This document shows, piece after piece, positions 3,830-25,217 of a stretch of 64,000 nt of DNA (positions are counted from its first letter, which is position 1; the number at the start of each line of letters is the position of its first letter). Origin of the DNA: Thermodesulfovibrionales bacterium (GTDB lineage: Bacteria > Nitrospirota > Thermodesulfovibrionia > Thermodesulfovibrionales > Dissulfurispiraceae). The DNA is taken from assembly GCA_030017995.1 (NCBI GenBank), contig JASEGS010000002.1, positions 21,463 to 85,462 of the forward strand, in the 5' to 3' direction. Under the pieces are notes generated by a model that saw only the letters and a program-made list of their open reading frames with translations, was not told the origin of the DNA and did not search any database. The position numbers and the translations under genes are program-made.

Positions 3830-4361
3830 TTTGGGTTTCGATTAAGGAAATCGCCTCCTTCAGCGATACCTTGTCAGTATCTATTGTAACCTCTGGATTT
3901 ATTGGCTCTTCATATGGGGCATGTATGCCGGGCACAGGCCATCCGGCCTTTCCTTTTTTGTAAATACCTTTTGGAGCGGCATGGGTTTCCTTGCGGGATG
4001 CCTCCCTTTCTGCGCAGATAGCAACAGGGCATTTTAGGTAGACTTCAAGAAAATTCGGTATAATCTCCCTCGCAAGTTCTCTCCATCGTCTCATATTCCC
4101 TGTGGCATCAATAATCACATCATGTCCGAGACTTGAGAGCGTCTTTGCTGTATACACGATTGCCCTATAGACCATCTCCCTTTCTGATTCTGAGTATGTG
4201 GGCTCTGGTGTGACAACCTTCCTAAGTTCATCCATTCTCAGGATGATAAAGTCAGGCAGGCGACTTTTAATCCCATCTGCCACAGTGCTTTTGCCGCTGC
4301 CGGGTAGACCTGTTATCCAGAGCACAATGCCATTCATAACAAAACGTCTATTTCCCCTCAA
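3813..4361 (-). CDS. P-loop kinase, adenylylsulfate kinase-like
   Basis: 182 aa. Walker [10 protein letters not shown] near the N-terminus. Size and layout match the APS-kinase family. Start may be the internal MNGIVLW. The 3' end overlaps uvrB convergently by 17 nt. Confidence 0.6.
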
Positions 4362-9649: not shown

Positions 9650-10432
9650 TTGTTAGACCTGTTGAGACAGATTAGATGGCAGGACTTGCTTGACATTGTG
9701 ATCGTCTCAATAATCTTCTACCGCATCCTGCTCATTATAAAAGGCACAAAGGCAGCAAAAATGCTTGCAGGATTGGGAATCCTGCTGGTAGCCTCTTTTT
9801 TTTCGAGATACCTTCAGCTATATACAATGGACTGGCTTATACAGAGTTTCTGGGCACAGGTAGTTATAGTGCTAATTGTCCTTTTCCAGCCCGAGATAAG
9901 AAAGGCCCTCGCCAAGATGGGGGAGTCTCCGTTCCTTCAGTTCGCCTCGGCTGAAGAGTTAAGGTCATTGGAAGAGATAGTAAAGACAGCAGTGGCGCTG
10001 GCAAACAGAAAGATAGGGGCTTTAATAGTAATTGAAAGGGATGTGAGTTTAAAAGATTATGTTGAAATAGGCACGCCTCTTGATGCAAAAGTCACAAAGG
10101 AATTGCTTCTGAGCATATTCCATCCTACCTCGCCAATCCATGACGGCGCTGTTGTTATTCGCGGCAACAGGATAGTTGCTGCAGGATGTTTTTTGCCAAT
10201 TACATTAGGCACAGATGTGGGCAAGACATTTGGAACGCGCCACAGGGCTGGTATCGGCATTACAGAGGAGACAGACGCGGTGGTTATCGTTGTGTCTGAA
10301 GAGACAGGCATGATCTCAGTAGCGGTTCATGGTAAACTGGAGACCCATATTGATATGGGAACATTAAGGGATATGCTTACAGATCTTTTTACAGAATCTA
10401 AAAAAGAAAAGGGGCCAGAAGGCAGGAGATGA
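9650..10432 (+). CDS. cdaA: diadenylate cyclase CdaA
   Basis: 260 aa. Three N-terminal TM helices. DAC domain motifs HDGAVVI, GTRHRAGIG, VVSEETG. TTG start after GGAGGG. Confidence 0.93.
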   Translation: MLDLLRQIRWQDLLDIVIVSIIFYRILLIIKGTKAAKMLAGLGILLVASFFSRYLQLYTMDWLIQSFWAQVVIVLIVLFQPEIRKALAKMGESPFLQFASAEELRSLEEIVKTAVALANRKIGALIVIERDVSLKDYVEIGTPLDAKVTKELLLSIFHPTSPIHDGAVVIRGNRIVAAGCFLPITLGTDVGKTFGTRHRAGIGITEETDAVVIVVSEETGMISVAVHGKLETHIDMGTLRDMLTDLFTESKKEKGPEGRR

Positions 10433-11076
10433 ATAAAAAAATATTCAATAACATGGGATTGAAGATACTCTCTGTGGCTATCGCCATATCCCTGTGGTTT
10501 TTTGTTACATACAGGGGGCAATCGGAGATGGTCATTGATGCGCCTATTGAGTTTAAGAATGTGCCGGAGAGATTGGAACTCCTGAAACAGAATATAAAGG
10601 TGGTAAGTCTGAACATAAGTGGACATGAGAGGCTTTTAAAGGGTTTAAATCCAATGGCTGTGAGAGTGGTTATTGACCTCGCTAATGCAAAGAAAGGCGA
10701 GACCTTGTATTATTTTGATAAAAACAATGTGGTTATCCATAGCAATATAAAAGTTCTAAGGATGGATCCTATGAGCGTAAGGGTGACTCTGGATGAATCA
10801 ATATCAAAAATAGTGCCGGTGAGGGTTAATATTACTGGCGTCCCTGAAAGCGGATATAGAATAAAGTCAGTTAAAGCAAGGCCATTATCTGTTGAAGTGG
10901 AAGGCGCAAAGATAGAAATAGACAGGATCTTTGTTTTGAGGACAGAGTCCCTCGATATATCAGGACTTAACTCCAGCACTATACAAAATGTGAAGCTGAA
11001 CACTGAGGGCAAAAATATCAGGACAAAAAATTCAGAAATCAGCGTGGAAGTCATTATTGAGAAGGTAAAGAAATGA
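10429..11076 (+). CDS. cdaR: CdaA regulatory protein CdaR (YbbR-like domains)
   Basis: 215 aa. N-terminal TM segment and YbbR-like repeats. Sits in the conserved cdaA-cdaR-glmM position with 4-nt overlaps at both ends. Confidence 0.75.
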   Translation: MNKKIFNNMGLKILSVAIAISLWFFVTYRGQSEMVIDAPIEFKNVPERLELLKQNIKVVSLNISGHERLLKGLNPMAVRVVIDLANAKKGETLYYFDKNNVVIHSNIKVLRMDPMSVRVTLDESISKIVPVRVNITGVPESGYRIKSVKARPLSVEVEGAKIEIDRIFVLRTESLDISGLNSSTIQNVKLNTEGKNIRTKNSEISVEVIIEKVKK

Positions 11077-12440
11077 GGTTATTCGGCACTGATGGAATAA
11101 GAGGCAGAGTAAATAAGGCTCCAATGATTCCGGAAAATGTTCTAAGAACAGGCATGGCTATTGCTCATGTGTTAAAAAACAATCCCCAAAATGATCATGG
11201 ACGGAATATGGTGTTGATCGGTAAAGACACCAGGCTCTCTGGTTATATGATCGAGAGTTCCCTTACATCGGGCATATGTTCCATGGGAATGAATGTGACC
11301 CTAGTAGGACCTGTGCCGACCCCGGCGGTTTCTTTCCTGGCACGCACATTAAGGCTTGATGCGGGCATAGTGATTTCAGCCTCTCATAATCCATTTGAAG
11401 ATAACGGCATAAAAGTATTTTCTGCAAGCGGCTTTAAGCTTTCTGATGAACTGGAGAGGGAGATAGAAAGGCTTGTGGCTGATAATGATTTCCCTAAAAA
11501 AAGACCATCAGGAGAGAAGATAGGCAGGGCGTTCAGACTGGATGATGCCACCGGCAGATACATAGAGTATGTAAAATCTACAATACCAAAGGGCGTAGAT
11601 CTTGAGGGATTGAAGGTGGTGGTGGATGCAGCCAATGGCGCTGCTTATAAGGTCACCCAATGGCTGCTAAGGGAATTAGGGGCAGAGGTAATATCTATCA
11701 ACGATAAACCTGATGGTATAAATATTAATGACAACTGTGGTTCTTTGCACATGGATTGTCTTATCAAAACAGTTAAGGAGACTGCTGCCCATGTGGGAAT
11801 AGCTCATGATGGGGATGCGGACAGGACCATTTTTGTGGATGAAAAGGGCAATGTTGTGGACGGTGATCTGATATTGGGGATATGGGCAACAGAACTTAAA
11901 AGGGAAGATAAGCTGAAGGGCAATGGAATTGTCGCCACTGTTATGTCCAACCTGGGTCTTGAGAGATATTTAGAAAGATTAGATATCAGACTTATCAGAA
12001 CAAAGGTGGGAGATAGATATGTTGTGGAAGAGATGAAAAGGGGTGGATATAATCTGGGAGGGGAACAGTCAGGGCATATAATATTTTTTGATTACAACAC
12101 TACAGGAGATGGCCCTGTAACAGCCCTTCAGATCTTATGCCTTATGAGGAAGAAAAACAAACTCATCTCTGAGCTGACAAGCAATATAGACCTCTATCCA
12201 CAAGTGCTTTTAAATGTTCCTGTTTCTGATAAGAAGAAATTAGAGGATGTCCCGGCTATAAAAAAGGTTATTGATGAATCTGTAAAAAAACTTGGAAACA
12301 GGGGCAGAATACTTGTGAGACCTTCGGGAACAGAGTCGAAGATAAGGGTTATGGTTGAGGCAGATGATTTAGATATTGCAAGAAATCTGGCTGAAGATAT
12401 GGCAGGGGTTATAAGAAAAACCATGGGCGAGAGACAATAG
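11073..12440 (+). CDS. glmM: phosphoglucosamine mutase
   Basis: 455 aa. MRLFGTDGIRG start. Phosphoserine loop ISASHNPFEDNGIK. GDADR metal loop. Confidence 0.96.
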   Translation: MRLFGTDGIRGRVNKAPMIPENVLRTGMAIAHVLKNNPQNDHGRNMVLIGKDTRLSGYMIESSLTSGICSMGMNVTLVGPVPTPAVSFLARTLRLDAGIVISASHNPFEDNGIKVFSASGFKLSDELEREIERLVADNDFPKKRPSGEKIGRAFRLDDATGRYIEYVKSTIPKGVDLEGLKVVVDAANGAAYKVTQWLLRELGAEVISINDKPDGININDNCGSLHMDCLIKTVKETAAHVGIAHDGDADRTIFVDEKGNVVDGDLILGIWATELKREDKLKGNGIVATVMSNLGLERYLERLDIRLIRTKVGDRYVVEEMKRGGYNLGGEQSGHIIFFDYNTTGDGPVTALQILCLMRKKNKLISELTSNIDLYPQVLLNVPVSDKKKLEDVPAIKKVIDESVKKLGNRGRILVRPSGTESKIRVMVEADDLDIARNLAEDMAGVIRKTMGERQ

Positions 12441-12461
12441 GATATGCGTTTATCTGAATAG

Positions 12462-14885
12462 ATGTCCTATTTCATTTTTTTCATTTGCGGCGCAGCGCTT
12501 TTTTACATTCATAGATACTTTCCATTTACAAGCCTTTCTATATTCATGGTAATTGCAGGCCTGCATTTATTTTTCAGCACAAAGAAAAAGTTTGCTCGCA
12601 GTTCATTTCTTGGCGCTGCCTCAATGGTGATTATTGCCTTCCTTGGGTTCTATTATGCCAATCTTTGGCATAAACCACAGATCCCTCCCTCAGAGATTGC
12701 CGGCAGGAGTGTAATAGTCGAGGGCATTGCAAGATCAGAAGCAGTTCAGTTAACCAATGGCGTTTTCTCGCAATTGATTGAAGTTAAAAAAGCAGAGGAT
12801 GAACATGGGAATATAATAAATTTAAAAGAGATCAAATTATTCAGCAATGCCCGGTTTAGCAATAACAGAATATTTATGATAAAGGCAAAGATCCCTGCTG
12901 AATCTTATTTCCTGAATCCATGGGGTGTAAGAAATCGTGTTCATGGTTATGTCTATGAGACAATTGAGACAGGCAGTAGAGACTTGGGATTTTTCGAGGA
13001 AACAAGGCTCAAACTCAATAGATTTTTAAAGGATAATTTTACAAGTGAATCTTCCGCATTTCTCATGTCCATTATAACAGGGGAGAGAGGTTTGCTAAAG
13101 AAGGAGACGAGAGACGCATTTAACTCAACAGGGCTTGCCCATATACTTAGCATATCAGGAGCTCACTTTGGATTGTTATTCTTTATCGTGTTCAAGTTTT
13201 TTAGAGTTTTGGTGAAACTGCTTCCGTATAATCTTCTTGCAAGATTAACGCTCTATATTACGCCGTCTCAGATAGCCGCAGTTCTGTCTATCCCGGTAAT
13301 GATCGGCTATCTCGGCATTTCAGATATGAGTTTTCCAGCCATCAGGTCATTTATCATGATAACCCTCTTTCTCTTTGGTCTCGTGATCCAAAGAAGAGGT
13401 TTTTGGCTGAATACATTGCTCTTTGCAGCAGTCGTGATAATTTTGATCCAGCCTGATTCGATCCTCGACCTCTCATTCCAGCTTTCTTTTATTGCTGTAT
13501 TGTGCATTGGACTGACAGCAGAACAGAAGGGCGGAAGAGCAGAAGAGCAGCAGTTTAAAAAAGAGGGAGCAACTCCATATGTCGAAGCTACCGGTCTACT
13601 GCTCTACTGGTCTGCTGCTCTAAAGTTCTGCTCTTCTGCGCTGAAAATTTCCCTCGCTGCAACCATTGGCACAGCGCCAATTGTGGCTTATTATTTTCAT
13701 TATTTCTCCCTTATATCGCCTCTTGCAAATCTTATTATTACGCCTGTTATTGGATTCATTATCCTCCCTGCAGCGCTTATCTCTTCATTTATCTTTCTTG
13801 TATCCGGCATCTTTCCTGCTCATGCAATTATAGACAAGCTCACCGCATTTGTTATCTCAGCAATAAAATATATTGCACAGTGGGGTTTTACAGAAGTGAA
13901 GATAGCAGCCTTTCCTCTCATATTGCTTGTGATGTTTTATGCCGGGATATTGTTTTATGTGTTCATAAAGAACAGGCAGGAACAGTCCAAAGCGTTATCT
14001 GTTATTTTGACGATAACCGTTTCTGTCATCCCATTTATCGTCTATGCAGTTATAAGGTTTTCTGAGCACAAGGGTATACAGATTACCTATCTTGATGTAG
14101 GGCAGGGAGATTCTGCTGTGGTCGAATTGTCTGATAAAAGGATACTTGTAGTGGATACAGGCAGAAACGGTTTTCAGACAGGCGAGTTTTTGCGATATAG
14201 AGGCATTAAAGAGATCGACGCTGTCGTTTTATCTCATGGTCAATCAGACCATGCAGGCGGCATAGAACAGCTTATAAAGAACTTTAAGGTCAATGAGATA
14301 TGGGATAACGGCAGGCAGGTTTATCCAGAGGGTTTTTTAAAAGGCATTCGGCACAGGGTATTACAGCGGGGAGATGTTGTGAAAGGCAATGGATATAGAA
14401 TTGTATTTGTCCATCCATATGATGGATTTTACACGCTATATTCGGGTAACAATGATGAAAACAACGAATGTCTTGTATTCAAGATTCAGGGGATTAAAAA
14501 TACTTTTCTCTTTACAGGGGACATTGAGGAAGAGGCTGAAAGCGATATTGCACATTTAGACGAGAAGATTAAGAGCAGTGTTTTAAAGGTTCCGCACCAC
14601 GGAAGCCGGACATCCACATCAGAAATATTTATGTATGCAGTTTCTCCTGAGATCGCGGTAATAAGCTCAGGGAGGAGAAATTCATACGGCCATCCTCATG
14701 AAGAGACGCTTGATAAATTTGGCAATATCCGTGTGCTGAGGACAGATCTGGATGGAGCGATAAATATAAGAGAACTATCCGATGGAAGCCTTAAAATCCG
14801 GACATGGAAGGACTTTCAGATAACAGAGGTAAAAGGGTTGAAACAAGAATTCAAGAATTTAGAAAAACTATTTCTTGTATGGTAG
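12462..14885 (+). CDS. comEC: DNA internalization-related competence protein ComEC/Rec2, with an in-frame repeat insertion
   Basis: 807 aa. Polytopic competence domain plus C-terminal MBL domain (YLDVGQGDS, LSHGQSDHAGG, VPHHGS). Confidence 0.85.
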   Translation: MSYFIFFICGAALFYIHRYFPFTSLSIFMVIAGLHLFFSTKKKFARSSFLGAASMVIIAFLGFYYANLWHKPQIPPSEIAGRSVIVEGIARSEAVQLTNGVFSQLIEVKKAEDEHGNIINLKEIKLFSNARFSNNRIFMIKAKIPAESYFLNPWGVRNRVHGYVYETIETGSRDLGFFEETRLKLNRFLKDNFTSESSAFLMSIITGERGLLKKETRDAFNSTGLAHILSISGAHFGLLFFIVFKFFRVLVKLLPYNLLARLTLYITPSQIAAVLSIPVMIGYLGISDMSFPAIRSFIMITLFLFGLVIQRRGFWLNTLLFAAVVIILIQPDSILDLSFQLSFIAVLCIGLTAEQKGGRAEEQQFKKEGATPYVEATGLLLYWSAALKFCSSALKISLAATIGTAPIVAYYFHYFSLISPLANLIITPVIGFIILPAALISSFIFLVSGIFPAHAIIDKLTAFVISAIKYIAQWGFTEVKIAAFPLILLVMFYAGILFYVFIKNRQEQSKALSVILTITVSVIPFIVYAVIRFSEHKGIQITYLDVGQGDSAVVELSDKRILVVDTGRNGFQTGEFLRYRGIKEIDAVVLSHGQSDHAGGIEQLIKNFKVNEIWDNGRQVYPEGFLKGIRHRVLQRGDVVKGNGYRIVFVHPYDGFYTLYSGNNDENNECLVFKIQGIKNTFLFTGDIEEEAESDIAHLDEKIKSSVLKVPHHGSRTSTSEIFMYAVSPEIAVISSGRRNSYGHPHEETLDKFGNIRVLRTDLDGAINIRELSDGSLKIRTWKDFQITEVKGLKQEFKNLEKLFLVW
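13516..13643. repeat. palindromic GAGCAGAA-family element inside comEC
   Basis: Left arm CAGCAGAACAGAAGGGCGGAAGAGCAGAAGAGCAGCAG. Right arm CTACTGCTCTACTGGTCTGCTGCTCTAAAGTTCTGCTCTTCTGCGCTG. Read through in frame as AEQKGGRAEEQQFKKEGATPYVEATGLLLYWSAALKFCSSAL. Confidence 0.8.
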
Positions 14886-14896
14886 AATGAAAAACT

Positions 14897-15520
14897 ATGA
14901 TAGCGATTGTTGACTATGGAATGGGGAACATAAGAAGCGTTGAAAAAGGGTTCCTGAAGGTCGGGGCTGATGCCATGGTGACATCAAACCCTAAGGTTAT
15001 TTCTGATGCAAAGGCTATAGTGCTTCCGGGAGTGGGCGCATTCAAGGATTGCATGAAAAACTTAGACGATCTCAAGCTCCTCGATACAGTTGTCCGAGAG
15101 ATTCAAAAGGGCAAGCCATATTTAGGAATATGCCTTGGTCTGCAGATACTTTTCACAGAGTCTGAAGAATTCGGCATCTGCAAAGGACTCGACGTATTTA
15201 AAGGCAGGGTCGTCAAGTTCAGATTTCCGGATGACAGCGATTTGAAGATCCCGCACATGGGATGGAATACGGTAATGCTGACACCCCCCCCCCCGATATT
15301 CGACGAAATCCCGGATAATTCATATTTTTATTTTGTCCACTCATTTTATGTAATCCCTGAAGATGAAGAAATCATTGCAGGCAGAACAGAGTATGGACTT
15401 GAGTTCACCTCCATGGTCTGGAAAGACAATATATTTGCAACCCAGTTTCATCCTGAAAAAAGCCAGGAGTTGGGGCTGAAAATACTCAAAGGATTCGGCG
15501 AATTCGCAAACAAGGCATGA
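14897..15520 (+). CDS. hisH: imidazole glycerol phosphate synthase, glutamine amidotransferase subunit
   Basis: 207 aa. MIAIVDYGMGN start. Nucleophile elbow LGICLGLQ. C-terminal HPEKS. Confidence 0.93.
   Translation: MIAIVDYGMGNIRSVEKGFLKVGADAMVTSNPKVISDAKAIVLPGVGAFKDCMKNLDDLKLLDTVVREIQKGKPYLGICLGLQILFTESEEFGICKGLDVFKGRVVKFRFPDDSDLKIPHMGWNTVMLTPPPPIFDEIPDNSYFYFVHSFYVIPEDEEIIAGRTEYGLEFTSMVWKDNIFATQFHPEKSQELGLKILKGFGEFANKA
15284..15294 (+). repeat. homopolymeric C11 tract inside hisH
   Basis: Eleven consecutive C, encoding PPPP in LTPPPPIF. Confidence 0.95.
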
Positions 15521-17403
15521 GCGGCGTTAAAAGTATTATTCTCGGAACTGCAGGTCATATTGACCACGGAAAGAGTTCTCTCGTAAAAGCTCTTACAGGC
15601 ACTGACCCTGACAGACTCAAGGAAGAAAAAGAGAGAGGCATAACCATAGACTTGGGTTTTGCAAATCTTGCCTATCCTGACGGCCTCACAGTCGGCATTG
15701 TCGATGTTCCGGGACATGAAAAGCTCATAAAGAATATGCTTGCAGGCGCCGGCGGCATTGATATTGTTTTGATGGTAATTGCGGCTGATGAGGGCATTAT
15801 GCCTCAAAGCAGGGAGCATCTGGCTATATGTGAATTATTAAAGATAAAGGCTGGAATTGTGGCAGTAACAAAGGCAGATCTTGTAGATAAAGACTGGCTC
15901 AGCCTTGTCATAGATGACGTGAGGGGGTTTGTAAAAGGCACATTTCTGGAAAATGCGGATATTGTGCCAGTATCAGCAAGGACAGGACTAAATATAGATT
16001 TGCTGAAGGAAAAGATAAAAGAGGTTGCGGGGAATGTAAAACCGAAATTGGTAGAAGGCCTGTTCAGGCTTTCTATAGACAGGGTTTTTACGCTGAAAGG
16101 ATTTGGAACAGTGGTAACAGGCACGGCCTTGTCCGGGACAATAACGCCGGACGCTCCTGTGGAAATACTCCCGTCAAAGATTGTATCAAAGGTAAGAGGT
16201 TTGCAAAGCCACGGCAGGAGTGTTGATAAGGCATATGCAGGTCAGAGAATAGGCATCAATCTTCAGGGTGTTGACAAGGAAGCATTAAAGAGAGGGGATG
16301 TTGTTGTTCCGCCTGACCGTTTTATGCCGACAAAGGTAATAGACGCTAAACTTGAGATGCTCGCAGATGCGCCACCCGTAAAGAGCAGGGGGCTTGTGCA
16401 TTTTTATTCCGGCACTGCGGAAACAATCGCAAGGATTATAATTTATGACAAAGATGAGATAAAAGCAGGAGAACAATGCTACTGCCAGTTCAGACTTGAA
16501 GAGCCTGTTATAATTTTGTCAGGAGACCGGTATATTATCAGAAGATTTTCGCCTCTTGAGACAATAGGCGGCGGAGAGATTCTTGACCCTTATCCTCCTA
16601 AGAGGAAGAAGAAAGAGGGGATAGAGGATCTTTTGAGCATTGAAAAGGGGGATCTGAAGGACAAGATTGAAGTGAAGGTTGAAAAATCAGGCTTTAATGG
16701 TTGTACAGCCTCTGATATAGAAGGATGGATACAGGGCAATATACCTGAAATAACGGCAGCTATCGAGCAGCTTTCCAAAGAGGGCAAGTTGATCAAGAGT
16801 CAGAATGTTCTGTTCCATCGTAAAATTTTTGATTCCTTTAGAGACATGGTCAAATCAACCCTAAGTCAGTTTCATAAAGGAAATCCGCTGAAGTCAGGCA
16901 TTTCAAAAGAAGAATTAAGGGCAAGGATGCCGGTTCCTGCATCCAGGTTTTTAAATCTCATAACTATGATAGATGATATAGCGGCAGAGAAGGATGTAAT
17001 CAGGCTTAAAGATTTCAAAGCATCTCTATCTGAGGTGGAAGAAGGGATCAAATGCAGGATAATTGCTGCCCTGAACAAAGATGGGTTTCAGCCCCCCACG
17101 AAATCAGAGCTTGCGCAGAAACTGTCTGTTTCCGAAAAAGAGCTTGCAGATCTTTTAAAGCTCCTAACAAAGGATTCTGTAGTGTTTAGGATTAATGATT
17201 CAATGTATATAACCAAGGGACAGTACGATAAGATGATAGATTTGCTGAAGGACTTCTATTGCAAAAAGCAGGAGATGACAGTGGCTGAATTCAGGGACAT
17301 CCTTGGGACAACGCGCAAATATGCCATGCCTATTCTTGAATACCTCGATTCTCACAAAATTACACTGAGGGTTGGGGATATCAGAAAGTTCGTGTTAAAA
17401 TAA
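15517..17403 (+). CDS. selB: selenocysteine-specific translation elongation factor
   Basis: 628 aa. GTPase motifs [18 protein letters not shown]. Long C-terminal winged-helix extension typical of bacterial SelB. Confidence 0.93.
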
Positions 17404-21197: not shown

Positions 21198-21313
<116 letters not shown>

Positions 21314-21322
21314 TTAAAATAG

Positions 21323-21392: not shown

Positions 21393-22655
21393 ATGGAGAT
21401 CGTTTTGAAGGTTTATCTTATCCTCATTTTTTGCCTTTATATCCTCAAAGAGGCATTTGAATACTTCATTCAATACCTTAATCTCAGGCATATGAGAAAG
21501 GCTGGAACTGCCATCCCTTCTGAATTTGAAGGAAAGATAGACGAAGGCTTGTTGAAAAGGACTCAAGATTACGCGGCTGACAAGACCGGATTTGATTTTG
21601 TTTCATCCATATTCGGCAATATCGTGACTATCGTATTCATATTTGGAGGTCTGCTGAATATTTACAATTCATGGATAGCATCATTGGATCTCTCTTTTAC
21701 AATTTCTGGATGGCTCTTCTTTTTGCTCTTAGTCTATGCCGGAGAGGTGCTGTCCATGCCTTTTAGCCTGTATAGCACCTTTAAGATAGAGAATAGATAT
21801 GGCTTTAATACCATGACCTTAGGTCTTTGGATATCTGATTTTGCAAAATCGATTATCATTTCTACAATCCTGATGTCACTTCTGACAATTTCAGGGCTAT
21901 GGCTCATTCAATGGAGTCCTGATTACTGGTGGTTCTGGATTTGGAGTTTTCTTTTTGTTTTCAGTATTTTTATTATGTATATATCGCCTTATGTGATAGA
22001 GCCCCTTTTCAACAAATTCACGCACATAGAGGACGAGTCATTGAAGGAAAAGATCATCAGGCTGACAGAAAAAGCCGGGATTCATGCGAGCAAGATATTA
22101 AAAATAGATGCGTCCAAGCGGAGCAGGCATACAAATGCTTATTTTACAGGCATTGGCAGGACAAAGAGGATTGTTTTATACGATACATTGCTTGACGGGA
22201 TGAGCCACGATGAAATCATTGCTGTGCTCGCTCATGAGATAGGTCATTGGAAGAGGAAACATTTATTGAAAACGCTGGTCGTATTTGAAATACTTTCGCT
22301 TATAGCCCTTTATGTTTCACATAGGCTTATTCAGGGCGATTTTCTATTAACGCTTTTCAATATCAGCACAAACACTGTTTTTGCAAAGTTCGTAATACTC
22401 GGATTCATCGCCAGCATTCTTTCTTTGGCATTGCAGCCGATTATGAATCTGTTCAGCAGGAGGCATGAAAGGCAGGCTGACAGGGCTTCTTATGAATTTA
22501 CAAGGGATGCGGACAGTATGGTGAGTGCGCTTGTAAGGTTGTCAAAAGAAAATCTCTCAAATCTTTATCCACATCCACTCTATGTGGTCCTGTACTATTC
22601 ACACCCGCCTATATTGGAGAGGATAAGGCATATAAAGAAGCTTCAAGTATCCTGA
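21393..22655 (+). CDS. M48 family zinc metalloprotease (Ste24/CAAX-protease-like)
   Basis: 420 aa polytopic protein. HEIGHWKRKH zinc motif. Downstream E and H as in Ste24-like M48A enzymes. Confidence 0.85.
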   Translation: MEIVLKVYLILIFCLYILKEAFEYFIQYLNLRHMRKAGTAIPSEFEGKIDEGLLKRTQDYAADKTGFDFVSSIFGNIVTIVFIFGGLLNIYNSWIASLDLSFTISGWLFFLLLVYAGEVLSMPFSLYSTFKIENRYGFNTMTLGLWISDFAKSIIISTILMSLLTISGLWLIQWSPDYWWFWIWSFLFVFSIFIMYISPYVIEPLFNKFTHIEDESLKEKIIRLTEKAGIHASKILKIDASKRSRHTNAYFTGIGRTKRIVLYDTLLDGMSHDEIIAVLAHEIGHWKRKHLLKTLVVFEILSLIALYVSHRLIQGDFLLTLFNISTNTVFAKFVILGFIASILSLALQPIMNLFSRRHERQADRASYEFTRDADSMVSALVRLSKENLSNLYPHPLYVVLYYSHPPILERIRHIKKLQVS

Positions 22656-23163
22656 CAAACTCATTTAACATCTCTTTTCTAAGGTCAAGGATTTCATTAA
22701 GTTGTTTGATGAATATACGATAAGGCTTTGCAGAGCCTTGTTCTATATGCTCAAGAAGCGCACTGCAGAAATACCAGTTGCACCTGAACGGCCTTATTGC
22801 CCTTTCTATAGTGCACCCGTATTCTGACAAAAACTGGCAGGGCTCTGTATCTTTCATGCCTTCTTTATATACCGGCAGTTTTAGTCCGAGGGCATAAATA
22901 TATACGAGGTCTTCATAGTCGTAGAATCCATGCCTATTTATGCAGCAAACCTTCTGACAGTTTGGGCAAATGACAGCGGTGTTTTGTTGAATAAAAGAAT
23001 CGATCTTGTCTATGCTGTATTTTATTGTCCTTGCAAGGTCTTTCACATGAGCAAGCTCTTCATGGTGCTCTGACGAGAATATTTCCAAAAGGTGTATTGC
23101 CCTATCCCACTTTTTTCTGTCAAGCCATGAAAGCTCACTATTCAATAAATACGCAGGACTCAT
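22609..23163 (-). CDS. Cys-rich YkgJ/UPF0153-like metal-cluster protein
   Basis: CPNCQKVCC ... CQFL..GCTIERAIRPFRCNWYFC. I use the internal ATG at 23163 (MSPAYLL...). The 77 upstream codons of the tracked ORF are low-quality and overlap better + strand ORFs. Confidence 0.5.
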   Translation of the reverse strand: MSPAYLLNSELSWLDRKKWDRAIHLLEIFSSEHHEELAHVKDLARTIKYSIDKIDSFIQQNTAVICPNCQKVCCINRHGFYDYEDLVYIYALGLKLPVYKEGMKDTEPCQFLSEYGCTIERAIRPFRCNWYFCSALLEHIEQGSAKPYRIFIKQLNEILDLRKEMLNEFVRILEASLYALSSPI

Positions 23164-23212
23164 GTTATGTGGTATATTATAAAACAAATCTAAAAACTGA
23201 GAGAGGCATTTG

Positions 23213-23380
23213 ATGAAGTGTAGAAATTGCAATGGAGAACTCAGATTGGTTTTTGGGTGAAAGTCTGTATTTTTCCGGTGCATGGACTGCGGCCGGGATT
23301 TTAAGGTTTCCGAATATATGCAGGAGATAGATGAACAGACATGGAGTTTAATAGCCACAAGGTCATGCAATCGGGCATAA
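23213..23380 (+). CDS. candidate small zinc-ribbon selenoprotein (in-frame TGA at 23258..23260 read as Sec)
   Basis: GAGAGG RBS 6 nt before the ATG. Reads MKCRNCNGELRLVFG-U-KSVFFRCMDCGRDFKVSEYMQEIDEQTWSLIATRSCNRA. Two CxxC knuckles. The frame stays open through the TGA to TAA at 23378..23380. A SECIS-like hairpin follows the TGA. Confidence 0.45.
23273..23298 (+). promoter_or_regulatory. SECIS-like hairpin downstream of the in-frame TGA
   Basis: TTCCGGTGCA / TGGAC / TGCG-G-CCGGGA gives 10 bp including 2 G-U pairs, with one bulged G. The loop starts 22 nt after the UGA and has G at its second position. Confidence 0.4.
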
Positions 23381-23392
23381 GAAGCTATTGAC

Positions 23393-23542
23393 ATGAATGT
23401 TTATTTGATAGAGATTTTTTCTTATCTTGCCGCAATCGTCATTATAGTGGCTGTTATATGCATAAGGCTATATAAAGTTTACAGGCGCTTTAACTCCAGC
23501 GAAAATGCTGATCATACAGTTGACAAAGATCCGGCAGGATAA
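23393..23542 (+). CDS. small single-pass membrane protein (49 aa), hypothetical
   Basis: MNVYLIEIFSYLAAIVIIVAVICIRLYKVYRRF... has one clear TM helix followed by basic residues. Lies between the small Cys ORF and the NYN gene. Weak RBS. Confidence 0.3.
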   Translation: MNVYLIEIFSYLAAIVIIVAVICIRLYKVYRRFNSSENADHTVDKDPAG

Positions 23543-23550
23543 GCAGCATC

Positions 23551-24072
23551 ATGCATATCATTATTGACGGCTATAATGTCATTGGCATCCTGCACAAGGA
23601 CATGGAAAAAGCGCGGGATGAGTTCATCGGCCTTCTCATGGGATACAAAAAATCAGGGCATCACGACATTACAGTTATATTTGATGGATACAAAAGCGGC
23701 GCAGGCGTCGAACAGACAATTGTCAGAGGAGGCATAAAGGTCATTTACTCAAGGCTCGGCGAAAGGGCTGACGATGTCATAAAAAGAGTCGTATCAAGCG
23801 AGAAAAAAGAGTGGATCGTAGTAAGCGATGACAGGGCTATCATAAACCACGCGTGGGCTTCAAACTCCATTCCAATACCCTCGGAAAGATTTTATGAGAT
23901 CGCATCGAGGGAAGCAAAACAAACAAATCAAAATCTGAGCATGGAATCGGCAGATGAATTTTTAGATAAAGCAGAAGAAGACGAATTTGGAAATGCTCCT
24001 TCACAAAAAGGGAATCCCCTTAAGCTTTCTAAAAAACAAAGGGCTGTAAGAAGGGTGATGGGCAAACTATAA
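23551..24072 (+). CDS. NYN-domain RNase-like protein (YacP/Rae1-like)
   Basis: 173 aa. MHIIIDGYNVIG and VVSDDRAI motifs. Confidence 0.75.
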   Translation: MHIIIDGYNVIGILHKDMEKARDEFIGLLMGYKKSGHHDITVIFDGYKSGAGVEQTIVRGGIKVIYSRLGERADDVIKRVVSSEKKEWIVVSDDRAIINHAWASNSIPIPSERFYEIASREAKQTNQNLSMESADEFLDKAEEDEFGNAPSQKGNPLKLSKKQRAVRRVMGKL

Positions 24073-24073
24073 T

Positions 24074-24967
24074 ATGATCGGATGGCTGCTGAAATCAAAA
24101 CCGGCTGATGCAATTACGATTATCTTCAGTATTTCACTTTTGCTTCTGACAGCGAGTTTTTATAAAAAAATCCCGTCTGCAAGTTATTTAATGCTTATAT
24201 ATTCATCTCTGATTTTCTTTCAGCTTGCGCTTGTCCGTTTAAGCAGGCTCAACTCATTTCTCACCTTAACGCGCGATATTATATTCCCTGTCATAAGCGT
24301 GCTGATAATATTCGACAGCCTTGGCTTGATTGTCCATAATATTAATTCTCAGGATATTGACCACCTGCTTATCAGGCTGGACTACATCATTTTTAGCGGT
24401 TATCCAACCATTATGATGGAGAAGGTAGCTTCACCATTGCTGACAGATGTCCTTCAGATTGCATATTCCACATACTATTTTCTTCCTGTAATGCTCGGCA
24501 TCATGCTGAAGGCGAAAAGAAAGGATGAAGAATTCGAGAAGTCGCTGTTCTTAATACTTCTATGCTTTTATCTCTCTTATGTCGGCTATATGCTTTTCCC
24601 GGCGCTCGGGCCGAGGTATGCGATGGAGCATCTTCAGGAAAAACAGATCGGCGGCTTTCTGGTCTCGCAGCCTATCCAGCAAATCCTCAACCTTCTTGAA
24701 GGTGTAAAGAGGGACGCGTTTCCGAGCGGACATACAGGCATTGCCCTCACAGTGCTTTTTCTTGCATACAGATACGAAAGAGGTCTTTTCTGGATAATGT
24801 CAGTTCCAGTGCTGCTATTGATAGTTGCCACCGTATATTGCAGGTATCATTATGTTATTGATGTCATCGGAGGAGCGGCTTTAACTGTTGTTACAGTAAC
24901 CATTGGTGAGTTATACTACAATTTCTACAAGAGACGCTATGGATTTGCCTTATACAAAAACCGATGA
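24074..24967 (+). CDS. PAP2-family membrane phosphatase
   Basis: 297 aa polytopic protein. PSGHT and RYHYVIDVIGG motifs. Confidence 0.75.
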   Translation: MIGWLLKSKPADAITIIFSISLLLLTASFYKKIPSASYLMLIYSSLIFFQLALVRLSRLNSFLTLTRDIIFPVISVLIIFDSLGLIVHNINSQDIDHLLIRLDYIIFSGYPTIMMEKVASPLLTDVLQIAYSTYYFLPVMLGIMLKAKRKDEEFEKSLFLILLCFYLSYVGYMLFPALGPRYAMEHLQEKQIGGFLVSQPIQQILNLLEGVKRDAFPSGHTGIALTVLFLAYRYERGLFWIMSVPVLLLIVATVYCRYHYVIDVIGGAALTVVTVTIGELYYNFYKRRYGFALYKNR

Positions 24968-25217
24968 CGGAATTATCATTGAAGTGAAGGTTATACCGCG
25001 CTCTTCAAAAAACGAAATTGCAGGCTCAATCGGCAATGCGATAAAGGTAAAGCTCACGGCTCCGCCTGTCGAGGGGGCTGCAAACGAGCAACTAATCGAG
25101 TTTCTCTCGAAAAAATTCGGCATAAGGAAAAGCGATGTGGTCATTATGAAAGGGGAAACATCAAGACATAAGACAATAAAACTGCCGATAAAACTAATTG
25201 GAGGAGAACTGCCTTGA
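24939..25217 (+). CDS. yggU: DUF167 (YggU) family protein
   Basis: Start moved to MDLPYTK... Matches IIIEVKVIPRSSKNEI...KVKLTAPPVEGAANEQLIEFLSK. Confidence 0.8.
   Translation: MDLPYTKTDDGIIIEVKVIPRSSKNEIAGSIGNAIKVKLTAPPVEGAANEQLIEFLSKKFGIRKSDVVIMKGETSRHKTIKLPIKLIGGELP

Follow-up and report, generated by a model that had tools for sequence, protein, structure and literature searches.

Does a TGA codon near the start of a small open reading frame (ORF) end a peptide, or is it read as selenocysteine (Sec)? The question is raised by a 55-codon frame at positions 23213 to 23380, on the plus strand, of a 64,000-nucleotide stretch of contig JASEGS010000002.1 from a Thermodesulfovibrionales bacterium; this whole stretch is called the window below, and all coordinates without a locus name refer to it. 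Taking together the translation of the frame, its score against a curated protein family and its comparison with homologues of equal architecture, we put at about 0.88 the probability that it is a genuine translated selenoprotein gene with Sec at residue 16. The actual insertion of Sec at UGA 23258 is what we infer from these comparisons of sequence.

A short frame that continues beyond TGA

A Shine-Dalgarno-like GAGAGG (23201-23206, plus strand) stands six nucleotides ahead of ATG 23213. The frame then reads MKCRNCNGELRLVFG up to the TGA at 23258-23260, which is codon 16, stays open for 39 more codons, KSVFFRCMDCGRDFKVSEYMQEIDEQTWSLIATRSCNRA, and is closed by a TAA at 23378-23380, so that the complete translation is MKCRNCNGELRLVFG-U-KSVFFRCMDCGRDFKVSEYMQEIDEQTWSLIATRSCNRA. 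The ribosome-binding site with its spacing, the in-frame TGA and the 39 open codons had been pointed out by an earlier inspection of the letters alone (the sequence-only reading), and all of them were found again. The product carries C3-x2-C6, U16 and C23-x2-C26 within 55 amino acids (aa), with a spacing that is identical in all homologues. A mechanical scan of the unassigned gaps of the window gave no other protein-like frame bridged by a TGA, which leaves the small ORF as the sole one.

Membership in a catalogued selenoprotein family

In searches with profile hidden Markov models (HMMs), the product with U replaced by C scores 55.7 bits against NF041197.2 (CxxC_Se_CxxC, 'dual CXXC motif small (seleno)protein'), an NCBIfam equivalog with a curated cut-off of 40 bits; with X at the same residue the score is 47.8 bits. 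Residues 3-54 align on profile positions 1-52 of 53. The sequence-only reading had suggested a family of this description; the family is real, and its cut-off is passed. The gain of 7.9 bits for C over X indicates that the profile expects Cys or Sec in that column, and since the fragment from Met24 onward reaches, by itself, 27.2 bits, under the cut-off, the N-terminal half that precedes the TGA must add real signal. No Pfam family reached its threshold for the small protein; zinc-ribbon matches were all sub-threshold, the best being Zn_Ribbon_TF with 21 bits for a threshold of 29.

NF041197 is the OS_HP3 (Olavius symbiont hypothetical protein 3) of Zhang & Gladyshev 2007, a predicted selenoprotein with a selenocysteine insertion sequence (SECIS) from the delta-1 and delta-4 symbionts of Olavius algarvensis, for which no Cys homologues were known at that time (PMC1976440). 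A 2026 inventory of prokaryotic selenoproteins includes OS_HP3 under NF041197 (PMC13188914 Table 1), and the Desulfosarcina widdelii member was the one known selenoprotein that deep-Sep missed (PMC12013277). The window gene is an additional member of this already catalogued family.

Homologues with Sec or Cys at residue 16

Homologues came from scans of genome and metagenome collections, from an exhaustive HMMER search and from a later search with the family profile. The collection scans gave L001, which belongs to a Nitrospiraceae metagenome-assembled genome (MAG), together with L003, L004 and L005; in all of them codon 16 is TGA and the sequence after it reads KSV..RCM[DE]C. The HMMER search, in which the 39 residues after the TGA served as query, was swamped by C2H2 zinc-finger repeat proteins of the eukaryote type, which matched 'FRCMDCGRDF', and the short matches alone were informative: a set of gene calls of 32-38 aa and one protein of 70 aa. 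At the DNA level, each of the shortened calls goes on upstream in the same frame and crosses a single TGA, located at the homologous codon, before it ends in an N-terminus of the type [ML]-K/R-C-x2-C...G. A word-index protein search with the single protein, U being replaced by C, gave no match; the family alignment as query succeeded. Two loci that share MKCRNCN (L002 and L006) turned out to be unrelated zinc ribbons and were discarded.

Fourteen distinct TGA forms, window included, were collected in this way, from independent assemblies and with a locus GC content of 39-67%. Apart from L001, L003, L004 and L005, TGA occupies codon 16 in L007, L008/9, L010/11, L012/13, L014, L015/16, L017, L019 and P0120. 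The closest relative of the window protein, with 69% identity, is P0124 from a Nitrospirota MAG, whose locus (L019) is one of those with TGA. In P0120, a JGI metagenome protein of 56 aa, a W is found at codon 16 and an extra W past the normal C-terminus; its contig was evidently translated with TGA as Trp, which would mask both the Sec codon and a TGA stop. Four natural Cys forms were obtained as well: P0109/L018 (TGT), P0121/L024-26 (TGC), P0122/L020-23 (TGT; 84 contigs) and P0123. They are the first natural ones for OS_HP3. Following the sequence-only reading, we had looked for homologues that end at the TGA and for homologues with Cys aligned at residue 16: instead of ending, the 14 Sec forms continue with conserved residues, and the aligned Cys is present in P0109/L018, P0121/L024, P0122/L020 and P0123.

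Residues C3, C6, U/C16, R22, C23, C26 and R50 are invariant, and Y35, E38, D40, C52 and R54 nearly so; W44 is invariant in alignment A3, yet replaced by Leu in the Cys form P0122. Pairwise nucleotide identity at codon positions 1/2/3 is 0.52/0.65/0.35 in codons 2-15 and 0.58/0.70/0.40 in codons 28-55. With identity lowest at position 3 and highest at position 2 on either side of the TGA, both sides evolve as coding sequence.

The TGA may nevertheless be taken as a true stop, in which case the locus would encode a 15-residue peptide or nothing, and the downstream part would be a separate gene of 32 aa starting at Met24 (ATG 23282). Many 'hypothetical protein' calls of 31-38 aa that correspond to such a gene are indeed found in databases, and TGA is common as a stop in this genome. 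However, Met24 is not conserved (other members have T, L or R, and callers use GTG or other starts), and ATG 23282 has no Shine-Dalgarno sequence, no purine run comparable to GAGAGG being present upstream of it. Conservation with a coding signature extends over codons 1-15 and 17-23, a split would halve one zinc ribbon and leave a single CxxC in each part, the Cys forms are continuous proteins of 55 aa, and the drop in NF041197 score from 55.7 to 27.2 bits for the C-terminal piece points the same way. We therefore regard a true stop as highly improbable.

Another scenario is that a Cys codon (TGC or TGT) has mutated to TGA in a pseudogene, or appears as TGA through a sequencing error. The Cys forms, which are one base away from TGA, make this worth considering. 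Yet the TGA recurs in 13 other distinct loci, in independent assemblies that span 39-67% GC, and purifying selection persists past it; moreover, a constrained hairpin is present and SelB is encoded nearby, as described below. A chance lesion of this kind is extremely improbable and would not account for one and the same TGA in 14 independent lineages.

SelB and the use of TGA in the window

The gene for the selenocysteine-specific elongation factor, selB, lies at 15517-17403 on the plus strand, 5.8 kb upstream of the small gene; the presence of SelB in the window, as read from the sequence before, is borne out by a TIGR00475 score of 378.8 bits, for a cut-off of 242.25, and by the SelB winged-helix and beta-barrel domains (PF09107, PF09106 and PF25461). 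SelB is the protein predicted to bind the hairpin described below. As a side observation, selB is placed between hisH and a htrA/degP-type protease gene, and not beside selA.

An alternative genetic code, with general reassignment of TGA, was considered and excluded: TGA is the normal stop of 17 of the 46 supported genes in the window, and is never found within the Pfam-supported ones.

A hairpin under constraint

Folding of the RNA from 23255 to 23312 reproduces the hairpin proposed by the sequence-only reading at 23273-23298 (plus strand). Its stem of 10 base pairs joins 23273-23282 to 23288-23298, with one bulged G at 23291, and its apical loop UGGAC (23283-23287) starts 22 nucleotides past the UGA. 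The stem is written in the codons for Arg22-Cys23 and Cys26-Gly27. The consensus for bacterial SECIS elements asks for a G in loop positions 1-2 and for 16-37 nucleotides between UGA and loop (PMC13188914); with a G at loop position 2 and a spacing of 22, the geometry is, as had been suggested, the usual bacterial one.

All Sec forms can fold a hairpin in one common register, which, counting the U of UGA as 1, consists of pairs 20-36, 21-35, 22-34, 23-33, 24-32 and 25-31 around a loop at 26-30. The stem spans the codons Arg22, Cys23 and the first base of codon 24 on one side, and Cys26 and codon 27 on the other; in the window, this family-conserved core is 23277-23293. Loops among Sec forms are usually UGGAN, the others being CGUCG, CGGCG or a G-containing loop of 7 nucleotides. 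In a 13-sequence alignment, 92% of the cells pair in the common register, as compared to 13-50% when it is slid by 1-3 columns. In the window sequence pair 21-35 is broken (CGG for CGC), but Arg28, encoded by CGG, lengthens the lower stem in a shifted register; CGG accounts for 18 of the 409 Arg codons in the genes of the window.

Several observations weigh against the selenoprotein reading, and most of them concern this hairpin. Its folding energy, -15.5 kcal/mol, is close to that of shuffled sequences (-13.7 +/- 2.5; z = -0.7), 42 of 200 shuffles fold equally well, and thermodynamic significance is likewise absent from the wider region around it. Covariation is weak: RNAalifold and pair counting gave one compensatory change only, from C-G to U-A in L010. 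The motif R-C-[MT]-x-C-G, when written in GC-rich codons, builds the stem automatically, and in L024, a Cys form, the hairpin is retained in perfect form (-9.2 kcal/mol), so that the stem is not tied exclusively to UGA. Outside the hairpin, a scan of ORFs with 150 aa or more in the 64-kb window gave neither selA nor selD; selC, the gene for tRNA-Sec, is also absent from the window, as are tRNA genes of any kind. Finally, the papers found report no experimental Sec insertion for any NF041197/OS_HP3 member, and neither functional nor selenium-incorporation data for this family.

The energy of the hairpin being at chance level, only comparison between homologues shows more than chance. Rfam gave nothing relevant at the hairpin, with gathering and with permissive thresholds alike. 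Covariation is weak because the stem sits in conserved codons, and synonymous sites were therefore tested instead. At third positions, identity is 0.76 within codons 22-27, versus 0.26-0.40 elsewhere. Cys23 and Cys26 are encoded by TGC in 24 of 24 cases, while the other Cys codons are split into 22 TGC and 12 TGT (p=6e-4); Arg22 is CGC in 10 of 12 sequences, a codon used for 12 of 59 other Arg residues. These p-values, and those given below for codon choice, ignore phylogenetic non-independence.

Loss of the hairpin in Cys forms was expected to provide a negative control, and this held in part only. In L018 the hairpin is lost, with TGT at Cys23, a loop devoid of G and an energy of -3.1 kcal/mol; it is partly kept in L020. 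The L024 locus (4001-4168; also L025 and L026) combines a TGC at codon 16, an Ala in place of Cys52 and the hairpin CGCUGCA-CGGCA-UGCGGCG, which is either a 'fossil' SECIS left by a recent switch from Sec to Cys or a by-product of GC-rich codons. This control was replaced by tests of codon choice in six loci of low GC content (39-49%), in which compositional bias is excluded. There, the Cys codons of the stem are TGC in 12 of 12 cases, against 6 TGC and 11 TGT elsewhere (p=4e-4), and Arg22 is CGC or CGG in all six, against 5 of 18 Arg codons elsewhere (p=0.003). Judging from these codon choices, the RNA structure of the hairpin appears to be under selection beyond the protein code.

Decoding of the small gene as a selenoprotein would then proceed as follows. 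Ribosomes would start at ATG 23213 and meet the UGA at 23258, where the hairpin, with its G-containing loop 22 nucleotides downstream, would recruit the SelB-GTP-Sec-tRNA(Sec) complex; Sec would be inserted as residue 16, and translation would run on to the TAA at 23378-23380.

A predicted zinc ribbon that may present a selenol

Structure was predicted for a natural Cys form of the family. AlphaFold2, with an alignment of 28 rows, gave a model with a predicted local distance difference test (pLDDT) score of 79.5; from a single sequence, confidence was poor (pLDDT 58). The model has strands at residues 9-14, 19-23 and 29-31, helices at 32-35 and 41-48, and residue 16 in a turn (15-18). As modelled, it has zinc-ribbon topology: both CxxC knuckles lie at one end, and residue 16, the Sec of the window protein, at the far tip of a hairpin. 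A Foldseek search against the PDB tells against this assignment in that it gave no significant neighbour (best E 0.18, TM-score about 0.5); the top matches are all small Cys4 ribbons, namely ZifS, the MqsA N-domain, RNA-polymerase ribbons and Topo I ribbons.

The 55-residue product would be a protein of the Cys4 zinc-ribbon type, in which the knuckles C3/C6 and C23/C26 hold a metal, most likely a structural Zn, with a rubredoxin-like Fe as alternative. Sec16 would be exposed in the beta-hairpin turn that separates the knuckles. Two short helices would come after it, then a basic tail in which Cys52 is usually present. The model is consistent with a metal-stabilised scaffold presenting an exposed selenol. 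Sec16 would most likely be the reactive centre, a selenol that is redox-active or binds metal or chalcogen and acts on a partner, and it possibly cycles with Cys52 in most members. In several members, on the other hand, Ser or Ala stands in place of Cys52 (L017, P0121, P0128, P0137 and P0140), and a Sec16-Cys52 couple therefore cannot be the universal mechanism: a selenenylsulfide between the two was downgraded to a feature that is not obligatory.

Neighbouring genes

The window is a housekeeping region. Upstream of the small gene the order is cdaA-ybbR-glmM-comEC-hisH-selB-htrA-PIN-ispD-ispF-5S rRNA-M48 protease, then a divergent gene for a Cys-rich protein of 184 aa. From the small gene onward come a 49-aa ORF, NYN/YacP, PAP2, DUF167, yicC, gmk, coaBC, pepP, efp, accC and others. 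Much of this gene set is shared by L019 (Nitrospirota), which points to a Nitrospirota relative as the origin of the window.

The 184-aa gene occupies 22609-23163 on the minus strand and encodes the pattern CPNCQKVCC...PCQF...GC...RPFRCNWYFC. Its product is YkgJ/CxxCxxCC-like by eye, matches no Pfam or NCBIfam family, and has no homology detectable by BLASTP with the Cys-rich family of about 190 aa carrying PF03692. The gene is divergent from the small gene in the window, in L024 (3393-3944) and in L007 (2-445), and its orthologues there (55% and 51% identity, respectively) align from residue 1. They bear on the possibility that the real gene across the locus is the minus-strand ORF at 22609-23394, of 261 aa from its first ATG, and the plus-strand frame fortuitous. 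A long open frame does exist there, but the alignment of the orthologues, of 183 aa, begins at the internal Met 23163, and loci without this minus-strand gene still have a conserved plus-strand ORF. As had been supposed, the extension at 23164-23394 is non-coding; judged by the orthologues, the 261-aa frame is an artefact of taking the first ATG, and the probability that it displaces the selenoprotein gene is practically negligible.

On the other side, a candidate ORF of 49 codons (23393-23542, plus strand), taken from the ORF list, starts 13 nucleotides after the stop of the selenoprotein gene and would encode one hydrophobic helix; it has no family match and no Shine-Dalgarno-like sequence upstream. 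In L012, L014 and L024, a CxxCxxCC protein of about 190 aa (PF03692) follows the small gene; the idea that the 49-aa ORF is a remnant of that gene in the same slot was rejected, the two being unrelated. Next comes a gene with a NYN/YacP (Rae1-type) nuclease domain (23551-24072, plus strand; PF05991, 79.7 bits), which is a recurrent downstream neighbour: orthologues with 43-58% identity are encoded one to three genes downstream in the window, L007, L012/13, L019 and L024-26, that is, in five lineages, one of them a Cys-form lineage. In L024 the nuclease gene is followed by a HicA-like toxin gene. As no terminator-like site was found between the small gene and NYN/YacP, the small gene probably heads an operon, with NYN/YacP in the same operon.

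Linkage to the NYN nuclease and to Cys-rich proteins concerns about half of the lineages; in the rest the neighbours are unrelated (rplM-rpsI, aspS with hemerythrin, cdaA, a hybrid-cluster protein, groES, or DUF3786 with radical SAM and cytochrome c). Synteny inherited within a single phylum could account for the NYN linkage, which is nevertheless the only functional lead for OS_HP3; its presence at a Cys form points to a relationship at the level of the protein rather than of the UGA.

In Bacillus subtilis, YacP/Rae1 cuts mRNA beside stalled ribosomes, including at the stop codons of short ORFs (PMC12407103, PMC10351889). A connection between Rae1-type cleavage and pausing at UGA is conceivable but speculative. 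The small ORF might then be above all a regulatory leader, in which selenium-dependent stalling at the UGA controls the downstream operon with its Rae1/YacP-type nuclease, the peptide being secondary. In line with this, the ORF opens what looks like an operon and no terminator follows it, a NYN/YacP orthologue is encoded downstream in five lineages, and Rae1 cuts both upstream of ribosomes that have stalled and at the stop codons of short ORFs (PMC12407103, PMC10351889). However, the amino-acid sequence is conserved over its whole length and folds as a domain in the AlphaFold2 model, the Cys form L024 has the same neighbourhood and no UGA, and about half of the lineages have unrelated neighbours. 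We consider such a leader very unlikely; it could coexist with the selenoprotein reading, and not replace it.

A broader proposal is that the small selenoprotein is linked in function to the NYN endoribonuclease and the Cys-rich proteins, either as a zinc-ribbon partner that binds ribosomes or RNA and whose exposed Sec senses redox state or selenium, or through the UGA-paused mRNA as a substrate of the nuclease. This is an unlikely proposal that we put forward tentatively; if true, the use of UGA-paused mRNA as NYN substrate would create a selenium-responsive control loop over the operon.

Other features of the region deserve mention. A lone 5S rRNA gene (21198-21314, plus strand; Rfam, 103 bits) lies between ispF and the M48 protease gene; as no 16S, 23S or tRNA gene was found in the window, this 5S gene is detached from an rRNA operon. 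If its first TTG is taken as the start, the DUF167/YggU ORF (24903-25217, plus strand) shares 65 nucleotides with the end of the PAP2 gene (24074-24967, plus strand); the true start of this ORF is probably further downstream. In L010/L011 (3001-6099), the small selenoprotein gene is directly upstream of cdaA-ybbR-glmM-comEC, while in the window this block (9650-14885) is found about 9-13 kb upstream of the selenoprotein gene; related genomes have therefore been rearranged around the small gene.

Significance

The main value of this analysis is a correction of annotation. Among the gene calls from metagenomes and the GenBank records of MAGs that we retrieved, the gene is absent or cut to a 'hypothetical protein' of 31-38 aa, and the selenoproteome of the organism is therefore under-counted. 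Together with 13 others, the window gene extends a poorly sampled family into Nitrospirota-like genomes. The Cys forms, which can be expressed in E. coli, should be useful for biochemistry on OS_HP3, and the recurrent linkage to a Rae1/YacP-type nuclease and Cys-rich proteins offers the first testable functional hint for the family since 2007. The SECIS stem lodged in the codons of the second zinc knuckle is a compact case of overlap between protein and RNA constraint.

Comparison with known systems

With OS_HP3/NF041197, the window protein shares a full-length HMM match, a size of 55 aa, a pair of CXXC motifs that enclose one Sec and, 3' of the UGA, a predicted SECIS. Three differences emerge. 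The original members came from deltaproteobacterial symbionts, whereas the closest relatives of the window protein are in Nitrospirota MAGs. No Cys homologues were known in 2007, and four are reported here. Lastly, the Sec motif tabulated for OS_HP3 is 'RxU' (PMC13188914 Table 1), whereas the window has F-G-U-K; in the 14 Sec forms the motif is mostly G-U-[KR], with Y-U and S-U occurring as well, and none has R at U-2. The 'RxU' entry may be an error or the motif of one representative; as a descriptor in a review table, outside the HMM definition, it would not be disqualifying.

The archetype of bacterial SECIS elements is that of E. coli fdhF. As in the bacterial consensus (Zhang & Gladyshev, bSECISearch), the stem-loop of the window is directly 3' of the UGA and within the coding region, and has a small apical loop with G (then G) in its first two positions, at 22 nucleotides, within the range of 16-37. 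What sets OS_HP3 apart from this consensus is that the codons of the second zinc knuckle (R-C-x-x-C-G) contain the whole of its stem; constraints on RNA and on protein thus fall on shared sites, there is hardly any covariation and some Cys forms keep the stem.

At the level of the protein, the likeness, which falls short of statistical significance, is to small Cys4 zinc ribbons, such as ZifS (TTHA0897, PDB 8yoz), the MqsA N-domain and the ribbons of the RPC10/Rpb9/TFIIS type, all of which have C-x2-C...C-x2-C knuckles around a beta-hairpin and a third strand. In these ribbons, unlike the NF041197 family, the hairpin tip bears neither a Sec nor a conserved Cys, and the C-terminal helical part (EY..EID...W..I..R.C.R) is, among small Cys4 ribbons, specific to NF041197.

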